DNA from: an uncultured Planctomycetales bacterium
GTDB lineage: Bacteria; Planctomycetota; Phycisphaerae; UBA1845; PWPN01
NCBI GenBank assembly: GCA_964611365.1
Contig: CAZSYS010000004.1
Coordinates: forward strand, 1 to 37,256
Reading direction: 5' to 3'
DNA length: 37,256 bases
Shown here: in pieces, positions 16,524-23,444 of the stretch
Numbering within the stretch: position 1 is the first letter of the stretch
Layout of the letters: each line of letters begins with the position of its first letter
Program-made: the position numbers and the translations under genes
The notes under the pieces: generated by a model
Database searches by the model: none
Seen by the model: only the letters and a program-made list of their open reading frames with translations
What the model was told of the DNA's origin: nothing

Positions 16524-17483
16524 ATGCGGTGCGGCCCACCGGTTGTCGACAGATTCACGGGGCCAGGTGCATCAGCCGGGCAACGGCTGGTGAAACCTCC
16601 TTCGCAACAGGTCCCGCCCCGTCGTGCGTCTCGCGGGATCTACGGACGCCGCGGGGGGCTGGTGCGGTGCGTCTACCTCGTCATCGCGGTTCTGTGGTGG
16701 GGGCTGGGGCGCCTGGCGGGATGGACGGGCGGCAGGACCGTCGTTCTGTGCTACCACGGGGTTCGCCGGCCCCAGCGGGATCGCTTTGCCTGGCAGATGC
16801 GCCGGATCGCAGGCCGAGCCGTGGAGGTTCTGCCGGGGCACGATCGCTCCCATCCTCGATGCTCGGCCCCGAAGGTGTGCGTGACCTTCGACGACGGCTT
16901 TGCCTGTCTGCTGGAGAATGCCTTCCCGGTCATGCGGTCTCTGGGGATCCCTTGTACGGTCTTCCCCGTGACGGGCAACCTGGGCGACCGGCCCCGCTGG
17001 TGTATGCCGGCCGGACATCCCGAGGCCGCCGAAAGGCTGATGACCGCCGAGGAGGTCCGCGCGGCACAAGACTCGGGCATGTGCCGGATCGGTTCGCACA
17101 CGCTCACGCATCCCCGGCTGGGGGACCTGAAGGATCCTGAAACGCTCCGCAGAGAAATCGAGGAATCCAGGGCAGCCCTTGAGACCATCACCGGCTCGGT
17201 GGTCGAGGATCTCGCCCTGCCGCACGGGTCCTGCACGCCGGCCACGCTTGCGGCGGCACGGGCGGCCGGTTATCGGCGCATCTTCACGCTGGGCGAGCGG
17301 CTCTGGTCAGGCCGGGCGGAGGACGATGTGATCGGCCGCTTCCCGATGTCGCCCGACGTCTGGAAACTCGAGTTCCTGCTGACCTGCGAGGGGGCGTATT
17401 CGTATCTGTATCACTGGCGACGATGTCTGCGGCGCGCCGGTAGCTGGATTTACGGCGGGGACGGGTCGAAGACGAACCCATGA
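16524..17483 (+). CDS. Polysaccharide deacetylase (CE4/NodB family), N-terminally membrane anchored
   Basis: TM segment VYLVIAVLWWGLGRLAGW, then VVLCYHGV, VTFDDGF (NodB motif 1) and IGSHTLTHPRL (motif 2). Start alternatives are ATG 16524 and GTG 16662. In-frame GC3 at 16561-16620 is only ~55%, which favours the later start. Confidence 0.78.
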   Translation: MRCGPPVVDRFTGPGASAGQRLVKPPSQQVPPRRASRGIYGRRGGLVRCVYLVIAVLWWGLGRLAGWTGGRTVVLCYHGVRRPQRDRFAWQMRRIAGRAVEVLPGHDRSHPRCSAPKVCVTFDDGFACLLENAFPVMRSLGIPCTVFPVTGNLGDRPRWCMPAGHPEAAERLMTAEEVRAAQDSGMCRIGSHTLTHPRLGDLKDPETLRREIEESRAALETITGSVVEDLALPHGSCTPATLAAARAAGYRRIFTLGERLWSGRAEDDVIGRFPMSPDVWKLEFLLTCEGAYSYLYHWRRCLRRAGSWIYGGDGSKTNP

Positions 17484-19066
17484 AGGAGTACCGTCTGGAG
17501 CCGTGTGACCGAGACAGGTGGGTGAAAACCGCACCGTCCTTCCGTGATTACAACTACCGCCAGCTCTGGGCCTTCGGCCAGGCGTGTGCCCGTCGGGTCG
17601 GCGCGGTCTCCGAGCACGTCGCGGTGGTCAGAGACGGCGAGGTGCTCGGTCTGGCCGATGTCCGGGTCAAGCGTATTCCGTTGATCGGCGGCGGGATCGC
17701 CTATATTAACGGCGGCCCGCTGGTCCGGCGCAACGATCCGTCCGATGGCCGGCGGTTGCTCCAGTGCCTTGCGGCCCTGGAGGCCGAATACGTCCGGCGG
17801 CGCAAGCTGGTCCTGAGGATCGCCTGCCCCCTGGGCCCGCCCGACTGGCTCACCCGGCAGGAGGAGGCACTGGCCGGATGCGGTTTTGCCCCCAACCCCC
17901 GCCTCAGGGCTTACCGGACGCTGGTGGTCGACCTTGACCGGCCCATCGAGGCCATCCGCAGGGGGCTGGACCAGAAGTGGCGCAACTGCCTGAACCGCTC
18001 GGAAAAGAACGGCCTGACCATCCGCAGCGGCGATTCGCAGGACCTGTTTGCCGAGTTCTGCGGCCTATATCGTCAACTTCTGGACCGCAAGGGCTTCGAG
18101 GTCGATCTGGATGCCGACTTCTACGCAGCCGTTCAGGAGCACCTGACCGATGGCCAGCGATTCCTCGTCAGCATCGCGGACTTCAGGGGCCAGGCGGTGG
18201 CCGGCCACGTGGCCAGCATCCTGGGCGACACCTGCGTGTACCTGCTCGGGGCCTCGAGCGCCGAGGGCATGCAGTCCAAGGCCTCTTACATGCTCCAATG
18301 GCACGTTATCCAGACCGCCCGGAGCCGCGGCTGCCGAGCCTACGACCTGGGGGGCATCGATCCCGAGGGCAATCCCGGAGTGTACCACTTCAAGAACGGC
18401 CTGGGCGGGCGGGAACTGGTAGCGGGTCGGGCCCTGGAGAAAGCAGGCAGCCCCGTCTCAGGTGCCGCGGCACGACTGGGCGATACCCTCAGGGCCTGCA
18501 GGTTCAGTGCTACTCGTGATAGGGGTACCGCCGTCTCGTGTCCGCTGGGGTTCCTGGCGATCGTCCTCGCGAACCGGATGCGCCCTAGACCCGCAAACAG
18601 GCACTCCGAGCGAGAAGGCCCAAAGCGTATACTCGCCATATCCTCGGGAGGAGGCCATTGGGTACAGCTCCTTCGCCTGCGACCGGCGTTTGAGGGGCAC
18701 ATGGTGACCTACGTCACCGTGGATGCTGCCTACCGCCTGGATGTACAAGGTGAGCGCTTCAGAACAGTCAATGACGCAACGAGATGGGACAAGGCGGCCT
18801 TGGCTCTCCTCGCACTGCGGGTCTTCCTGTTGTTGGTGAGGCTCAGACCGCATGTGATTGTGTCTACTGGGGCCGCTCCAGGTTACTTCGCAATACGACT
18901 GGGGCGCTGGACAGGGGCCCGGACTATCTGGCTTGACAGCATTGCCAACGTCGAGGAACTTTCTCTATCAGGTCAGCGCGTGGGCAGATATGTGGATCTT
19001 TGGCTTACTCAGTGGTCTCATCTGTCCCGCCCGGAAGGGCCGAAATACGCGGGGACGGTGCTTTGA
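17480..19066 (+). CDS. FemAB-like (PEP-CTERM-locus type) domain in frame with an Alg14/PssD-like glycosyltransferase subunit
   Basis: aa 1-~320: NYRQLWAFG, LDQKWRNCLNRSEKNGL, YLLGASSAEGMQSKASYMLQWHVIQTARSRGCRAYDLGGI, GVYHFKNGLGG (FemAB/methicillin-resistance family pattern). aa ~380-528: RILAISSGGGHWVQLLRL...VIVSTGAAPGYFAIRL...WLDSIANVEELSLSG (Alg14/PssD pattern). There is no stop codon between the two parts. ATGA overlap with the upstream CE4 gene. Confidence 0.8.
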   Translation: MKEYRLEPCDRDRWVKTAPSFRDYNYRQLWAFGQACARRVGAVSEHVAVVRDGEVLGLADVRVKRIPLIGGGIAYINGGPLVRRNDPSDGRRLLQCLAALEAEYVRRRKLVLRIACPLGPPDWLTRQEEALAGCGFAPNPRLRAYRTLVVDLDRPIEAIRRGLDQKWRNCLNRSEKNGLTIRSGDSQDLFAEFCGLYRQLLDRKGFEVDLDADFYAAVQEHLTDGQRFLVSIADFRGQAVAGHVASILGDTCVYLLGASSAEGMQSKASYMLQWHVIQTARSRGCRAYDLGGIDPEGNPGVYHFKNGLGGRELVAGRALEKAGSPVSGAAARLGDTLRACRFSATRDRGTAVSCPLGFLAIVLANRMRPRPANRHSEREGPKRILAISSGGGHWVQLLRLRPAFEGHMVTYVTVDAAYRLDVQGERFRTVNDATRWDKAALALLALRVFLLLVRLRPHVIVSTGAAPGYFAIRLGRWTGARTIWLDSIANVEELSLSGQRVGRYVDLWLTQWSHLSRPEGPKYAGTVL

Positions 19067-19602
19067 TCTTCGTGACGGTCGGAGCGCAGCTTCCCTTTGA
19101 CCGGCTCGTACGAGCCGTGGATGAGTGGGCCCGGAAGGCTAGTCGGGGGGATGTGGTTGCTCAAATTGGGCGGGGCGGCTGGCGCCCCAGGCACTTTCCC
19201 TGGACGGAATTCCTTAATCCGGAGGAATTCCGTGCCCACGTTGAATCTGCGTCGGTGATTGTATCTCATGCCGGTATTGGCTCGATCCTGATCGCTCTAG
19301 AGCACCAGAAGCCAATCTTGGTGATGCCGCGGCGGGGCGACCTGCGCGAGACCCGCAACGACCATCAGTTGGCGACCGCACGGCGTTTTCGCGAATTGGG
19401 CAAGATCGAGACGGCCCTTGACGAAGAAGAACTGCATCAGAGGCTTGAAGCGATCTCCAGGCTGCGGGAAGGCGGCCCCATCGGACCCTTTGCCTCTCCT
19501 CAGCTTATCCAGGCGGTGCGGCGGTTCATCACGGAGGCGGGAGTGATCACGGCTCTGGCCTGCCTCGCCGCGACGCCTCCTGGCGGGGGAGTCTCCCCAT
19601 GA
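19063..19602 (+). CDS. Alg13/PssE-like glycosyltransferase subunit (GT28 C-terminal domain)
   Basis: TTG 19063 gives (M)IFVTVGAQLPFDRL, the classic N-terminus of this family. It overlaps the Alg14-like stop as TTGA. Also present: VSHAGIGSILIALEHQKPILVMPR and NDHQLATARRF. ATG 19000 is an unlikely alternative. Confidence 0.8.
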   Translation: MIFVTVGAQLPFDRLVRAVDEWARKASRGDVVAQIGRGGWRPRHFPWTEFLNPEEFRAHVESASVIVSHAGIGSILIALEHQKPILVMPRRGDLRETRNDHQLATARRFRELGKIETALDEEELHQRLEAISRLREGGPIGPFASPQLIQAVRRFITEAGVITALACLAATPPGGGVSP

Positions 19603-20477
19603 TCAGCATCATTATTCCCGCTCACAACGAGGAAGCCGTGATTGCGCGGTGCCTGCGGTCGATTCTCGATGGTGCCGATCCGCTGGAGCTTGAGGTGATC
19701 GTTGCCTGCAACGGCTGCACGGATCGAACAGCCGAAGTCGCCCGCCAGTTCGGAGAGCCCGTACGGGTCATCACAGTGCGAAAGGCGTCCAAGACTGCCG
19801 CCTTGAATGTTGCCGACTGTCTGGCCCGCGGTTTTCCGCGGTTCTACGTCGACGCCGATGTCGTTCTGACGATCGATGCAATCAGGAGGATCGCGGATCT
19901 TCTTGAGCAAGGGGGAGGTCTCGTTGCTTGGCCAGAACCGCGGACTGACCTTTCGCGGTCTTCATGGCCCGTCCGCGCCTTCTATGCCGTCTGGGCCCGC
20001 CTGCCCTACAACAGGTCGCACGGCTACGTTGGGGCCGGCGTCTACGCGCTCTCCCGCGAGGGACGGGCGAGGTTTGACCGCTTTCCCCACGTCATCAACG
20101 ACGACGGCTTCGTGCGATTCCTCTTTCAGCCCGCTGAGCGTGTCTCGGCGGTGGATGCCTGCTGCCAGGTGCAGGCGCCTGAGACCCTCGCGGACCTTAT
20201 TCGGGTGAAGACCCGCGTGCGCCGCGGACAGTACGAGCTGGGCCGGCGCTTTCCGATGATGCCTAACCGCGAGCGGAAAAACTGGAGAACTTTAGCCGGC
20301 GTGTGTGTCTCGCGGCCGTGGTTGGTGCTCTGCCTGCCCGTATATGTCGGGGTGACGCTGCTGGTGAAGTGGCGGGCACGAGCGGAGATGTCATGGGGCG
20401 CGGGCGTCTGGGAACGGGACGAATCTTCGCGACGCGCGTTGGACGGCAGCGAGACGGCTGGTGGAGAACGGGCATGA
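19599..20477 (+). CDS. Family 2 glycosyltransferase
   Basis: MISIIIPAHNEEAVIARCLRSIL, VIVACNGCTDRTAEVA, KTAALN and YVDADV (DxD). ATGA overlap with the upstream gene. A C-terminal TM segment is present. Confidence 0.85.
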   Translation: MISIIIPAHNEEAVIARCLRSILDGADPLELEVIVACNGCTDRTAEVARQFGEPVRVITVRKASKTAALNVADCLARGFPRFYVDADVVLTIDAIRRIADLLEQGGGLVAWPEPRTDLSRSSWPVRAFYAVWARLPYNRSHGYVGAGVYALSREGRARFDRFPHVINDDGFVRFLFQPAERVSAVDACCQVQAPETLADLIRVKTRVRRGQYELGRRFPMMPNRERKNWRTLAGVCVSRPWLVLCLPVYVGVTLLVKWRARAEMSWGAGVWERDESSRRALDGSETAGGERA

Positions 20478-20580
20478 GTACCGGTCCTGGGCAATGCCGG
20501 GTTTGGGTGACATAATATAGTCGCCTTTAAACAGCGATTCTCGGCGAAGGCTTCCGGGTTTTGCAGATGAGCCCTGCGAG
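20478..20580 (+). promoter_or_regulatory. AT-richer intergenic spacer, candidate internal promoter for the flippase operon
   Basis: This 103-nt gap follows a run of overlapping genes. It contains GGTGACATAATATAGTCGCCTTTAAACAGCG, the most AT-rich stretch in this part of the locus, with TATAAT-like hexamers (CATAAT / TAATAT). Confidence 0.3.
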
Positions 20581-22089
20581 ATGACGCGTCCGCAACGCAG
20601 CAACGTAAGCTCTCAAGGAAAGGGCCAGCCCTGTGGGCGCGACCTGCTTGCGCGCTGCCTGCGCGCAGGCAGCATTCTGGCCGTGAGCAGCGGCGTAGCG
20701 CAGGGCGCGCGGCTGCTCCGGAACATCATTCTGGCCCGTATCCTGGCACCCGACCAGTTCGGCCTGATGGCCCTGGTGCTTGCGGCGAGCCTCCTGTTCG
20801 AATCACTCACCGAGGTCGGAATCCGCCAGGCGATTGTTCAGAGCCGGCGTGGGGACACCCTCGGATACCTCAACGCTGCGTGGTGGTTCAGTGCGACCCG
20901 AGGCGTACTCCTTTACGCTCTGGGCGTCTGGAGCTCCCCCTGGATCGCGGCCTTCTACGAAGAACCGGGACTCACGCCGCTGCTGCAGGTTGCCTTCCTC
21001 ACGATGGCGTTCTCCGGATTCACCAGCCCGCGGCTGTATGTCCTTGAGAAGCGGCTGGAATTCGGCAAGTATGTATGGATCACCCAGGGGGCGGGACTTG
21101 CCGGTACGCTGATCAGCCTGTTGATGGTGACGGTATTCCCGAATGTGTGGGCCCTGGTGATCGGATTCGTCGGCGAGGCCGTCAGCCGGTGTCTTGCATC
21201 GTTCGTCTTCTGCCCCATGCGCCCGAGGCTCCTGTTCGATCAGGCATCGGCACGTGAGTTGCTCAGGTTTTCCCGCGGGATGATCGGGCTGCCGCTGCTG
21301 ACCTTCGTCGTGATGCAGGCCGACGTTTTTGTGCTCGGCAAGGTCTGCAGCAGGGACGACCTGGGGATGTATACGCTGGCGCTGTCGCTGGCACAGACTC
21401 CCGTGACGCTCTTCTCCAGGGTCGTCCAGCCGCTGATTCTGCCCGTGCTCTCCGAGGCCCAGGATGACCTCCCTCGAATGTGGCACCATCTTCTGCGGAT
21501 GAACCGGTCCATCCTGCTGTTCGGCTTTCCGGTTTCCTGCCTGCTGGCGGTGTTTGCGCCGGCGGTCCTGAAGGCATGCTACGGTCCTTCCTATGAGGTG
21601 ATGTCGCCGGTGTTGGCGATCCTCTCCTTCTACTTTCTTCTGCAGCTGATCAACATCCCTGTAGCCTCGGCGTACCTGGCTCTGGGGCGGCCAGCCCTGC
21701 ATCGCCGCTTCACCATGCTCCGGCTCGTGCTCATCGGACTCACGATTTATCCAGCAGCCTCCCTGTATGGGACCACGGGCGTCGCGGCAGACCTGCTGGG
21801 CTGCCTCGCTGTCGCCACTGGTTTTCAGCTGGTCGTTCTTGGCCGAGCTCTGGCCATGCCTGCAGCCTCCTATGCGGCAAGCGGAACGGAGGGCGTTGTG
21901 GTCGGGGCGGTGCTGTCTCTCCTCGCGTGGGGCCTGTGCCCGCATCTGCCGGGCAGCGTGCTGACGCAGCTGGCGCTCGCCGGTCTGCTCGGGACTGGCT
22001 CAGCCGTCCTCGGTCTGCATCTCATTCGAAGTCGCCCGGGCGGCTTCACCGCTGCTCCCGGCTGCCCGGTCGCGTCGAAGGAACCGTGA
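20581..22089 (+). CDS. Oligosaccharide flippase (Wzx-like, MOP superfamily polysaccharide biosynthesis protein)
   Basis: About 12-14 predicted TM segments. The N-terminal pattern GVAQGARLLRNIILARILAPDQFGLMALVL...GIRQAIVQ is typical of PST/Wzx flippases. Confidence 0.83.
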   Translation: MTRPQRSNVSSQGKGQPCGRDLLARCLRAGSILAVSSGVAQGARLLRNIILARILAPDQFGLMALVLAASLLFESLTEVGIRQAIVQSRRGDTLGYLNAAWWFSATRGVLLYALGVWSSPWIAAFYEEPGLTPLLQVAFLTMAFSGFTSPRLYVLEKRLEFGKYVWITQGAGLAGTLISLLMVTVFPNVWALVIGFVGEAVSRCLASFVFCPMRPRLLFDQASARELLRFSRGMIGLPLLTFVVMQADVFVLGKVCSRDDLGMYTLALSLAQTPVTLFSRVVQPLILPVLSEAQDDLPRMWHHLLRMNRSILLFGFPVSCLLAVFAPAVLKACYGPSYEVMSPVLAILSFYFLLQLINIPVASAYLALGRPALHRRFTMLRLVLIGLTIYPAASLYGTTGVAADLLGCLAVATGFQLVVLGRALAMPAASYAASGTEGVVVGAVLSLLAWGLCPHLPGSVLTQLALAGLLGTGSAVLGLHLIRSRPGGFTAAPGCPVASKEP

Positions 22090-23444
22090 GTTCTTCCCAA
22101 TCCAACCCGCCCCATTTCATCGTGATGGGGGCCTCGCTGGACAGCGGCAACCTGGGGGTCAGTGCCCTTCTCGCGTCCACCGTGAAGTGCATCCTTCAGG
22201 CACGACCCGGCGCGAGAATCAGCCTTCTGGAGGGCGCCAGGCAGCCGGACACGCCGCAGGTGGTCCTGGCCGACGGCCATGCGGTCCGCCTGGAACGCGT
22301 GGGCGTCCGCCGCAACAAGACGGTCTGGCGGTCGAATCATCTCCTGCGCCTGCTGGCCACCGCGTGCATGATCCGGATGCTGCCGGTCGGTGCGTGGCGC
22401 CGAAGACTGACCCGCAGGAACCGCTGTCTGAGGCTGATCTCGGAGGCCGAATGCATCGCGGACATCACCGGGGGCGACAGCTTCAGCGACATCTATGGAT
22501 TTGCGCGTCTGCTGTTCGGGGTGCTGGAGAAGCTGCTGATTCTGGCCGCAGGCGCCGATCTTGTGCTTCTTCCGCAGACCTACGGCCCGTTCCGGGCGAG
22601 GGCCAGCCGGGCGCTGGCCCGGCTGGTTCTTTCCCGGGCTTGGGCAGTCTACGCCCGGGACCGTGAGAGCATCGAAACCATTGAGCGGCTCATCGGCGGA
22701 CGCGGCATGAGGTGCGTTCCCGGGGTGGTCCCTGACGTTGCCTTCGTGCTGGACCCCAGACCGCCGGCGGCGATTCGGGCAACGCCTCGGCTGCCTGGAG
22801 CCGGCGAGTGTGATTGCCTGGTCGGCTTCAACGTCAGCGGCCTCCTGTACAACGGGGGCTACACGCGGAACAACATGTTCGGACTCCGATCGGACTACCG
22901 TTCGACGGTTGAGGCGGTGGGCGAGGCCCTTCTGAGGCGGGATGGAACGTCGCTTCTGCTGGTACCTCACGTCTTCACCCCTTCCGGTCACGTCGAAAGC
23001 GATCCCGATGCCTGCCGGTGGCTGTATGACGCCCTGGAACCTCGTTTTCCCGGGCGCGTGTTCCTGCTGGAAGGCGAGTATGACCAGAGCGAGATCAAGC
23101 ACGTGATCGGCCGCTGCGGTTTTTTCGTCGGGTCCCGGATGCACGCCTGCATCGCCGCCGCCTCCCAGGGGATCGCCACAGCTCCGATGGCCTACAGCAG
23201 GAAGTTCGCCGGCGTCTTCGATCTCCTTGATGCGAAAGACTGCGTGGTCGACCTGCGCGATCGATCGACCGACCAGGCGGTTCGGGACGTGATAGAGGTG
23301 TTTGATCGGCGAGCCTCCGTGGCCGCCGGCCTGGACCGGAGGCTGCCCGCCGTCCGGGAGGCGTTGCGCGCGGTCTTCGCGACGACACCGGCACCTGAAC
23401 GCCCATCGGCCGTCGCAGATCTGACGGTAGGAGTGATGAGTTGA
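22086..23444 (+). CDS. Polysaccharide pyruvyl transferase family protein
   Basis: GTG 22086 overlaps the flippase stop (GTGA). Motifs: [78 protein letters not shown] (WcaK/CsaB-like pattern). Confidence 0.85.

Follow-up and report, generated by a model that had tools for sequence, protein, structure and literature searches.

Glycosyltransferases of the GT-B fold that are split into two polypeptides are exemplified by the PssD/PssE pair from Rhizobium leguminosarum, the Cps14F/Cps14G pair from Streptococcus pneumoniae type 14, and the eukaryotic Alg14/Alg13 pair. FemX, FemA, and FemB are aminoacyl-tRNA-dependent transferases of the double-GNAT FemAB fold family. Relatives of both groups are encoded next to each other on a 37,256-nt stretch of DNA from an uncultured Planctomycetales bacterium (GenBank assembly GCA_964611365.1, contig CAZSYS010000004.1). 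This stretch, hereafter referred to as the window, represents a whole contig of a 560-contig metagenome-assembled genome (MAG) from a hot-spring metagenome. Its Alg14/Alg13-like pair is of the same split type as the pairs listed above, and its FemAB-like half belongs to the same fold family as FemX. Here, the FemAB-like and Alg14-like parts are joined in a single 528-aa open reading frame (ORF; positions 17480..19066, + strand) that consists of a FemAB-family domain, a divergent tail, a linker, and a PssD/Alg14-like domain. None of the databases searched contained another FemAB::Alg14 protein, so this architecture is new, but it is a singleton in one MAG. The fused ORF is probably real DNA that represents an accidental, lineage-specific fusion at the boundary of an exchanged gene cassette.

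A FemAB-family domain in frame with an Alg14-like unit

From the ATG codon at position 17480 to the TGA codon at 19064-19066, the reading frame is not interrupted by any stop. Its first 315 residues (17480..18424, + strand) comprise a FemAB/FemX-type transferase core with ∼66% identity to stand-alone homologs of 342-350 aa. ORF residues ∼165-310 match the Pfam domains FemAB (PF02388; 71.5 bits, cut-off 24) and Acetyltransf_6 (PF13480; 57.2 bits, cut-off 22). The FemAB half also matches the FemX structures with PDB codes 6snr and 1ne9 (E = 5.5e-11). A subfamily profile, built from 115 close homologs retrieved in a clustered-protein search, covers ORF residues ∼3-335 with a score of 527 bits. 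The core is 57-69% identical to the members of this subfamily and retains all its invariant columns; given this lack of decay, the fusion event is either recent or tolerated. The scores with the equivalog models for FemX (NF047883) and the PEP-CTERM FemAB (TIGR03019) are only 43.7 bits versus a cut-off of 500 and 36.3 bits versus 260, respectively. These comparisons place the FemAB half in a distinct, Planctomycetota-rich subfamily of ∼345-aa proteins that are typically paired with a CE4 deacetylase. In the window, the FemAB start codon sits on the stop codon of such a deacetylase gene in an ATGA overlap.

The C-terminal part of the ORF is recognized by Pfam as Alg14 (residues 426-525; PF08660, 27.3 bits, barely above the cut-off of 27) and by NCBIfam as PssD (residues 385-516; NF041549, 54.6 bits, below the cut-off of 110). 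It contains its own in-frame ATG at 18578, from which a PssD/Alg14-like unit of 162 aa (18578..19066, + strand) could be translated; within the 528-aa ORF, this internal codon is the sole possible source of a stand-alone unit of that size. Thousands of stand-alone proteins of 147-175 aa that carry a PF08660 annotation share 60-72% identity with this unit, and no sequence with more than 72% identity was found in any collection searched. The distance from ATG 18578 to the SGGGHW motif is 22 residues. Six relatives have 7-28 residues at this place, and most of a set of 120 homologs have 8-36, so this codon corresponds to the start position of the stand-alone Alg14-like genes.

The next gene (19063..19602, + strand) encodes a 179-aa PssE/Alg13-like catalytic half. 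It starts with a TTG codon that overlaps the stop codon of the fused ORF (TTGA), and its own stop overlaps the following GT2 glycosyltransferase gene as ATGA. The product scores 101 bits with the PssE model NF041548 (equivalog cut-off 120) and 40.4 bits with Glyco_tran_28_C (PF04101, cut-off 22), and matches the yeast Alg13 structures 2ks6 and 2jzc (E = 4e-5). In seven related loci, the Alg14 and Alg13 genes overlap as ATGA or GTGA, followed by the same N-terminal sequence, IFVTVGAQ. The shared overlap position and N terminus indicate that this coupling is orthologous, with a weaker start codon (TTG) in the window. A preliminary description of this DNA, made from the sequence alone, had already reported the frame that stays open from the FemAB-like into the Alg14-like domain up to 19066, the in-frame ATG that gives a 162-aa protein, and the TTG at 19063 that overlaps the ORF stop. 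The domain matches, the start positions of the homologs, and the overlaps in the related loci agree with all three observations.

The same description called the FemAB::Alg14 architecture unfamiliar, which agrees with every database searched. When 5.8 billion clustered proteins were searched with a word index, the only protein combining FemAB and Alg14 was the window's own; the FemAB homologs in that search were 335-376 aa long and shared no more than 69% identity with it, a value that was exceeded in no other collection either. When 1.84 billion representatives were scanned exhaustively with phmmer, none of the best 150 matches listed contained both halves; the three two-stretch matches listed there were the FemAB-FemAB tandems P0002 and P0032 and the Alg14-Alg14 tandem P0245. 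The comparison of orthologous loci and domain architectures, suggested in the preliminary description, found the fusion conserved nowhere, with both domains in one frame in none of the 166 fetched Alg14-bearing loci. All homologs of the FemAB half (∼345 aa) and of the Alg14-like half (147-175 aa) are separate proteins. Both genes are absent from the only other genome of the same genus (G001), so the genus does not share this part of the exopolysaccharide (EPS) locus. In the literature, no papers mentioning FemAB together with Alg14 were found. As the join was seen in none of the other genomes searched, it is best regarded as a curiosity rather than a new enzyme class.

Synteny, base composition, and the boundary of the variable cassette

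The genome regions around the two closest FemAB homologs (L013 and L014) are syntenic with the window. In both, genes for a radical SAM protein, a small protein, an Acetyltransf_6 protein, and a deacetylase precede a FemAB gene of 342-344 codons with its own stop, which is followed by a spacer of ∼150-190 nt and a GT4 glycosyltransferase gene. Compared to L013, the products of the window are 49-69% identical in the left flank (66% for FemAB) and 70-84% identical in the right flank. In the middle, the identity is just 26% for the flippase and 34% for the pyruvyl transferase, and the position of the L013 GT4 gene is taken by the Alg14, Alg13, and GT2 genes. Polysaccharide loci usually consist of conserved flanks around an exchangeable central cassette. 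The variable cassette of the window (18430..23444, + strand), which encodes Alg14, Alg13, GT2, a Wzx-type flippase, and pyruvyl transferase, also has a lower GC content at the third codon positions (GC3). The GC3 value drops from 0.84 in the FemAB core to 0.62 in Alg14 and 0.69 in Alg13, followed by 0.73 in the next GT2 gene and 0.77-0.78 further on. Ranked within the 4.67-Mb assembly, which has 4728 coding-like ORFs with a median GC3 of 0.825, the values of 0.62 and 0.69 fall within the lowest 0.3% and 8.6%, respectively. The shift starts at ∼18440, within the FemAB tail, and persists in a milder form to ∼23.4 kb.

Two loci suggest that breakpoints recur at this boundary. In L014, which comes from a related Phycisphaerae MAG, a degenerate remnant of a FemAB 3' end (L014:8553-8942; profile positions 285-341, E = 6e-13) sits between the intact FemAB-GT4 genes and a deacetylase-Alg14-Alg13 cassette; this remnant looks like a recombination scar. 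In L064 (a Phycisphaerales MAG; L064:3980-4002, ATGGCGAAGCGTAA), the TAA stop of a FemAB-family gene lies 14 nt past the ATG of an Alg14-like gene, with the two genes in different frames, so that one small indel would produce an in-frame fusion. This is the only directly adjacent FemAB/Alg14 pair among the 166 loci; in six others, FemAB is found on the same strand at a distance of 0.7-3.7 kb from Alg14.

The abrupt change in composition at the junction, in a MAG of 560 contigs from a hot spring, could also be taken as a sign that the contig is chimeric, with two organisms joined at ∼18430-18480. Such an artifact is extremely unlikely: the genes on both sides match a single L013 contig at comparable identity, and the junction sequence is unique and non-conserved, with no repeat that might mislead an assembler. 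In the independent Logan assembly of the source run, a contig of 18.6 kb crosses the junction with a uniform word depth of ∼10x and is identical to the window over 17900-19300 (0 mismatches and 0 gaps, at the contig level of comparison, where low-frequency variants stay invisible). A second sample from the same study contains an identical 155-nt piece over 18550-18704. The chimera was rejected based on the two-sided synteny with one relative contig and the independent assembly, and the identity of the latter makes an error of assembly or consensus unlikely as well.

Such an error was one of the explanations offered in the preliminary description, along with a genuine fusion coupling the two enzymes and a recently acquired Alg14/Alg13 cassette. 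The acquired cassette is the best-supported of these explanations, given the conserved L013 flanks, the GC3 drop, the break in similarity at residue ∼315, and the L014 remnant. Its size and breakpoint, however, had to be revised: the cassette is larger, spanning ∼18.43-23.44 kb, and more than the stop codon is affected, as similarity is already broken within the FemAB tail. Likewise, the reported change in codon usage is real but starts at ∼18440 instead of 18620 and extends to ∼23.4 kb.

In a broader context, the window represents an EPS locus with an exosortase (PF09721) and EpsI (DUF3485). Sugar-nucleotide genes and an AMP-ligase, AsnB, and NadE-like set are found upstream. The fused ORF is preceded by the genes for GT2, a B12-radical SAM protein, a small Cys-rich protein, a 709-aa Acetyltransf_6-GNAT protein, and the CE4 deacetylase, and is followed by those for the Alg13-like protein, GT2, the Wzx-type flippase, pyruvyl transferase, a hexapeptide transferase, and an FrhB-like protein. 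The AT-richer 103-nt spacer before the flippase gene contains the only sigma-70-like match in the region 17000-20800 (TGGGCA-17-CATAAT with an upstream TG, 20488-20516), which may mark an internal start of transcription in the cassette. The longest ORF for pyruvyl transferase, starting from GTG 21927, overlaps the flippase gene by ∼160 nt (21927-22089). Because relatives show no similarity to its first 58 residues, translation probably starts further downstream, close to the stop codon of the flippase gene. The same sample also yielded a 329-nt contig (depth 3.2) that matches, with mismatches, two short conserved FemAB stretches (window 17972-18246); the spring thus seems to be home to a related organism that also has a FemAB gene.

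The FemAB tail, the linker, and the reading frame

The identity of the FemAB half to its L013 and L014 counterparts is 66% up to residue ∼315, after which it falls to 4 of 23 positions. The segment that follows (18425..18520, + strand) is a degenerate version of the FemAB C-terminal tail. In the 115 subfamily members, this tail is marked by the nearly invariant residues G11 (113 sequences), E29 (113), E14 (107), and P12 (106), as well as Y32 (91) and R33 (90). The fused ORF has lost G11, P12, P17, E29, Y32, and R33, so that only A9, L13, and E14 remain; the characteristic pattern APGPFE...P.G...E..YR, with a stop at 335-376 aa, is absent. Codon periodicity is gone as well: in the region 18431-18520, the GC content at the three codon positions is 0.67, 0.70, and 0.60. 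The loss of this near-invariant tail may have impaired the FemAB activity.

The tail is followed by an orphan linker (18521..18577, + strand) that includes a hydrophobic 15-mer, TAVSCPLGFLAIVLA (18527-18571), with no counterpart in the homologs. No in-frame ATG, GTG, or TTG codon is present in the linker or anywhere between 18431 and 18577. Comparison of the junction (18400-18640) with the regions upstream of Alg14 genes, using blastn and tblastn in three frames in 92 and later 171 loci, revealed only noise, the apparent tblastn extensions into the linker being run-on. The junction was also searched for repeats at the boundary, for promoters, and for terminators, and none were found. Eukaryotic Alg14 carries an N-terminal membrane anchor, and the linker was considered as an anchor of this kind that would be a family feature of the Alg14-like proteins. 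This option was rejected, as none of the 120 homologs has a hydrophobic N terminus and the linker lacks a start codon.

In summary, a conserved modification block, from GT2 to FemAB, is followed by a variable glycosyltransferase/flippase cassette and then by the conserved right flank with the hexapeptide transferase and the FrhB-like protein. From these observations, we infer that in this lineage, the incoming cassette was probably headed by a split GT-B glycosyltransferase of the PssD/PssE (Alg14/Alg13-like) type. Its left junction would fall within the last ∼30 FemAB codons, destroying the conserved tail and the stop and leaving FemAB, by chance, in frame with Alg14 with no stop between them. 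Once the FemAB stop is gone, the odds that the join is in frame and stop-free over ∼19 GC-rich codons are approximately 1 in 4-5, so there is no need to invoke selection. Initiation at 17480 would produce a 58-kDa FemAB-linker-Alg14 protein, and the retained ancestral ATG at 18578 could additionally give rise to an 18-kDa stand-alone subunit. Either form of Alg14 is expected to pair with the TTGA-coupled Alg13-like half, and the pair would transfer the second sugar onto the repeat unit on its lipid carrier. The fusion has probably been tolerated rather than selected.

A small indel near 18424-18428 could produce a join of the same appearance, whether it is a genuine frameshift of recent origin or a mistake in the consensus. 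If two nucleotides are extra at this point, the native FemAB protein would continue as SGPGE...RLR... and end at 345 aa with the tandem stop codons TGA-TAG (18517..18522, + strand; frame starting at 18391), leaving 55 nt (18523-18577) before Alg14. When all 274 single-indel hybrids were scored on the 115-sequence family profile, the best one, with the removal of 2 nt, raised the score from 528.5 bits for the ORF as is to 533.4 bits. The FemAB sequence then reads ...ELVA-SGPGESRQPRLR..., with the G-P-x-E and L-R residues back in register, and its length is typical of the family. In addition, GC across 18431-18520 peaks at the second codon position of the ORF frame. A gain of 5 bits is weak, however, after a trial of 274 hybrids, and in an in-register comparison with the family tail using a position-specific scoring matrix, the ORF frame does nearly as well as the alternative one (−7.5 versus −5.4 bits). 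In the distal tail, including E29, both frames are at the chance level. A consensus error is made unlikely by two assemblers that agree with 0 differences at the ∼10x word depth. Programmed ribosomal frameshifting was rejected, as no slippery heptamer is visible at 18415-18430. Overall, a small indel at this site is quite unlikely to be the source of the join. After a genuine frameshift mutation, the fused ORF would still be real; only a consensus error would remove the fusion.

Several observations weigh against an accidental fusion by cassette exchange. With an empirical null, the tail in the ORF frame scores above chance (p ∼0.002), which means that it may be a diverged native tail and not foreign DNA. 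The alternative frame also scores above chance (p ∼0.001), and because it ends at the tandem stops, a small indel could have made the join without recombination exactly here. No flanking repeats or mobile-element traces were found at the cassette boundaries, and no relative is close enough for a base-by-base reconstruction of the event. The stand-alone Alg14-like product of ATG 18578 is assumed; since there is no stop near this codon, the termination-reinitiation coupling seen in the relatives cannot operate. Finally, three small metatranscriptomes from the same study contained no transcript coverage of the fused ORF.

Other fusions and comparison with known systems

Several other fusions of these domains were detected. 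Two metagenomic proteins, P0264 and P0389 (726 and 732 aa, 85% identical to each other), are FemAB::GT4 fusions that retain the whole tail, PGPFE...SVYRR, followed by a linker of ∼20 aa. GT4::Alg14 fusions are found in three clusters, and there are also deacetylase::FemAB and FemAB::GNAT fusions, besides the FemAB-FemAB and Alg14-Alg14 tandems. Judging from these architectures, fusion is tolerated by these domains elsewhere.

Among the metagenomic proteins P0042, P0245, P0396, P0398, and P0456 are Alg14-Alg14 tandems of 339-360 aa and GT4::Alg14 fusions of 549-563 aa. In Planctomycetota-type EPS loci, varied partners are joined to Alg14-like halves.

In principle, the 528-aa protein could be a selected bifunctional enzyme, a FemX-type, probably aminoacyl-tRNA-dependent, transferase docked via its Alg14-like subunit on the split GT-B glycosyltransferase; overall, this appears unlikely. 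In such an enzyme, FemAB would presumably aminoacylate or acylate a de-N-acetylated amino sugar, so that tailoring and the addition of the second sugar would take place in one membrane-proximal complex. It is likewise improbable that a single complex, with the hydrophobic linker as a membrane-proximal tether, both elongates the lipid-linked repeat unit of the exosortase-associated EPS and modifies it with aminoacyl or acyl groups. The intact FemAB core with all family-invariant residues would suit a working enzyme, as would the inheritance of FemAB::GT4 in another lineage, the recurrence of N-terminal partners on Alg14, and the proximity of FemAB and Alg14 in L064 and the six additional loci. 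The hydrophobic 15-mer is placed like the anchor of eukaryotic Alg14, but it is too short to form a typical transmembrane helix, and N-terminal anchors are absent from all the bacterial homologs. Further, the architecture is a singleton in every search and recurs nowhere, no homolog of the linker turned up in any reading frame, and near-invariant tail residues are lost, whereas FemAB::GT4 keeps its whole tail. The composition break, too, fits a recent acquisition better than a settled architecture.

In these Planctomycetota exosortase loci, the FemAB 3' end is the point at which the conserved part gives way to the variable part. At this border, there is a scar in L014, a gene overlap in L064, an inherited FemAB::GT4 fusion in one lineage, and a fresh FemAB::Alg14 fusion in the window. 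Under the favored scenario of an accidental fusion, the window illustrates how cassette exchange in polysaccharide loci can create a new domain architecture in one step. This case also calls for caution in genome annotation, as automated pipelines would name the 528-aa ORF by one of its domains and miss the probable stand-alone PssD-like subunit. Should the fusion be functional, FemX-type tailoring would be physically tied to the early assembly of the repeat unit, providing a useful handle on the chemistry of the widespread deacetylase-plus-FemAB module.

The Alg14/Alg13-like pair of the window differs from PssD/PssE in falling below the respective equivalog cut-offs (54.6 versus 110 bits and 101 versus 120 bits). 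In contrast to all the split GT-B pairs mentioned above, its Alg14-like unit continues a FemAB ORF with no preceding stop, and, unlike eukaryotic Alg14, it does not have an N-terminal membrane anchor of that kind. Similarly to the TIGR03019 FemAB proteins of the XrtA/PEP-CTERM systems, the FemAB half belongs to an EPS locus with an exosortase, in which its gene comes immediately after that for a CE4 deacetylase; however, it is far below the equivalog cut-offs of both TIGR03019 and FemX and has lost the C-terminal tail of its subfamily. In the glucuronosyltransferases of the WelK/GelK type (NF046028), Alg14 and Alg13 are fused to each other. The Alg14-like half (47 bits) and the Alg13-like half (87 bits) from the window align with the two halves of WelK, but they are encoded by separate genes, and the Alg14-like half is instead fused at its other end, to FemAB. 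The closest parallel is provided by P0264 and P0389, in which a FemAB protein of the same subfamily is likewise fused at its C terminus to a downstream-encoded glycosyltransferase. Those FemAB::GT4 proteins are inherited, with a complete tail and a one-piece GT4, whereas the fusion in the window is a singleton that has lost the tail and is joined to one half of a split glycosyltransferase.

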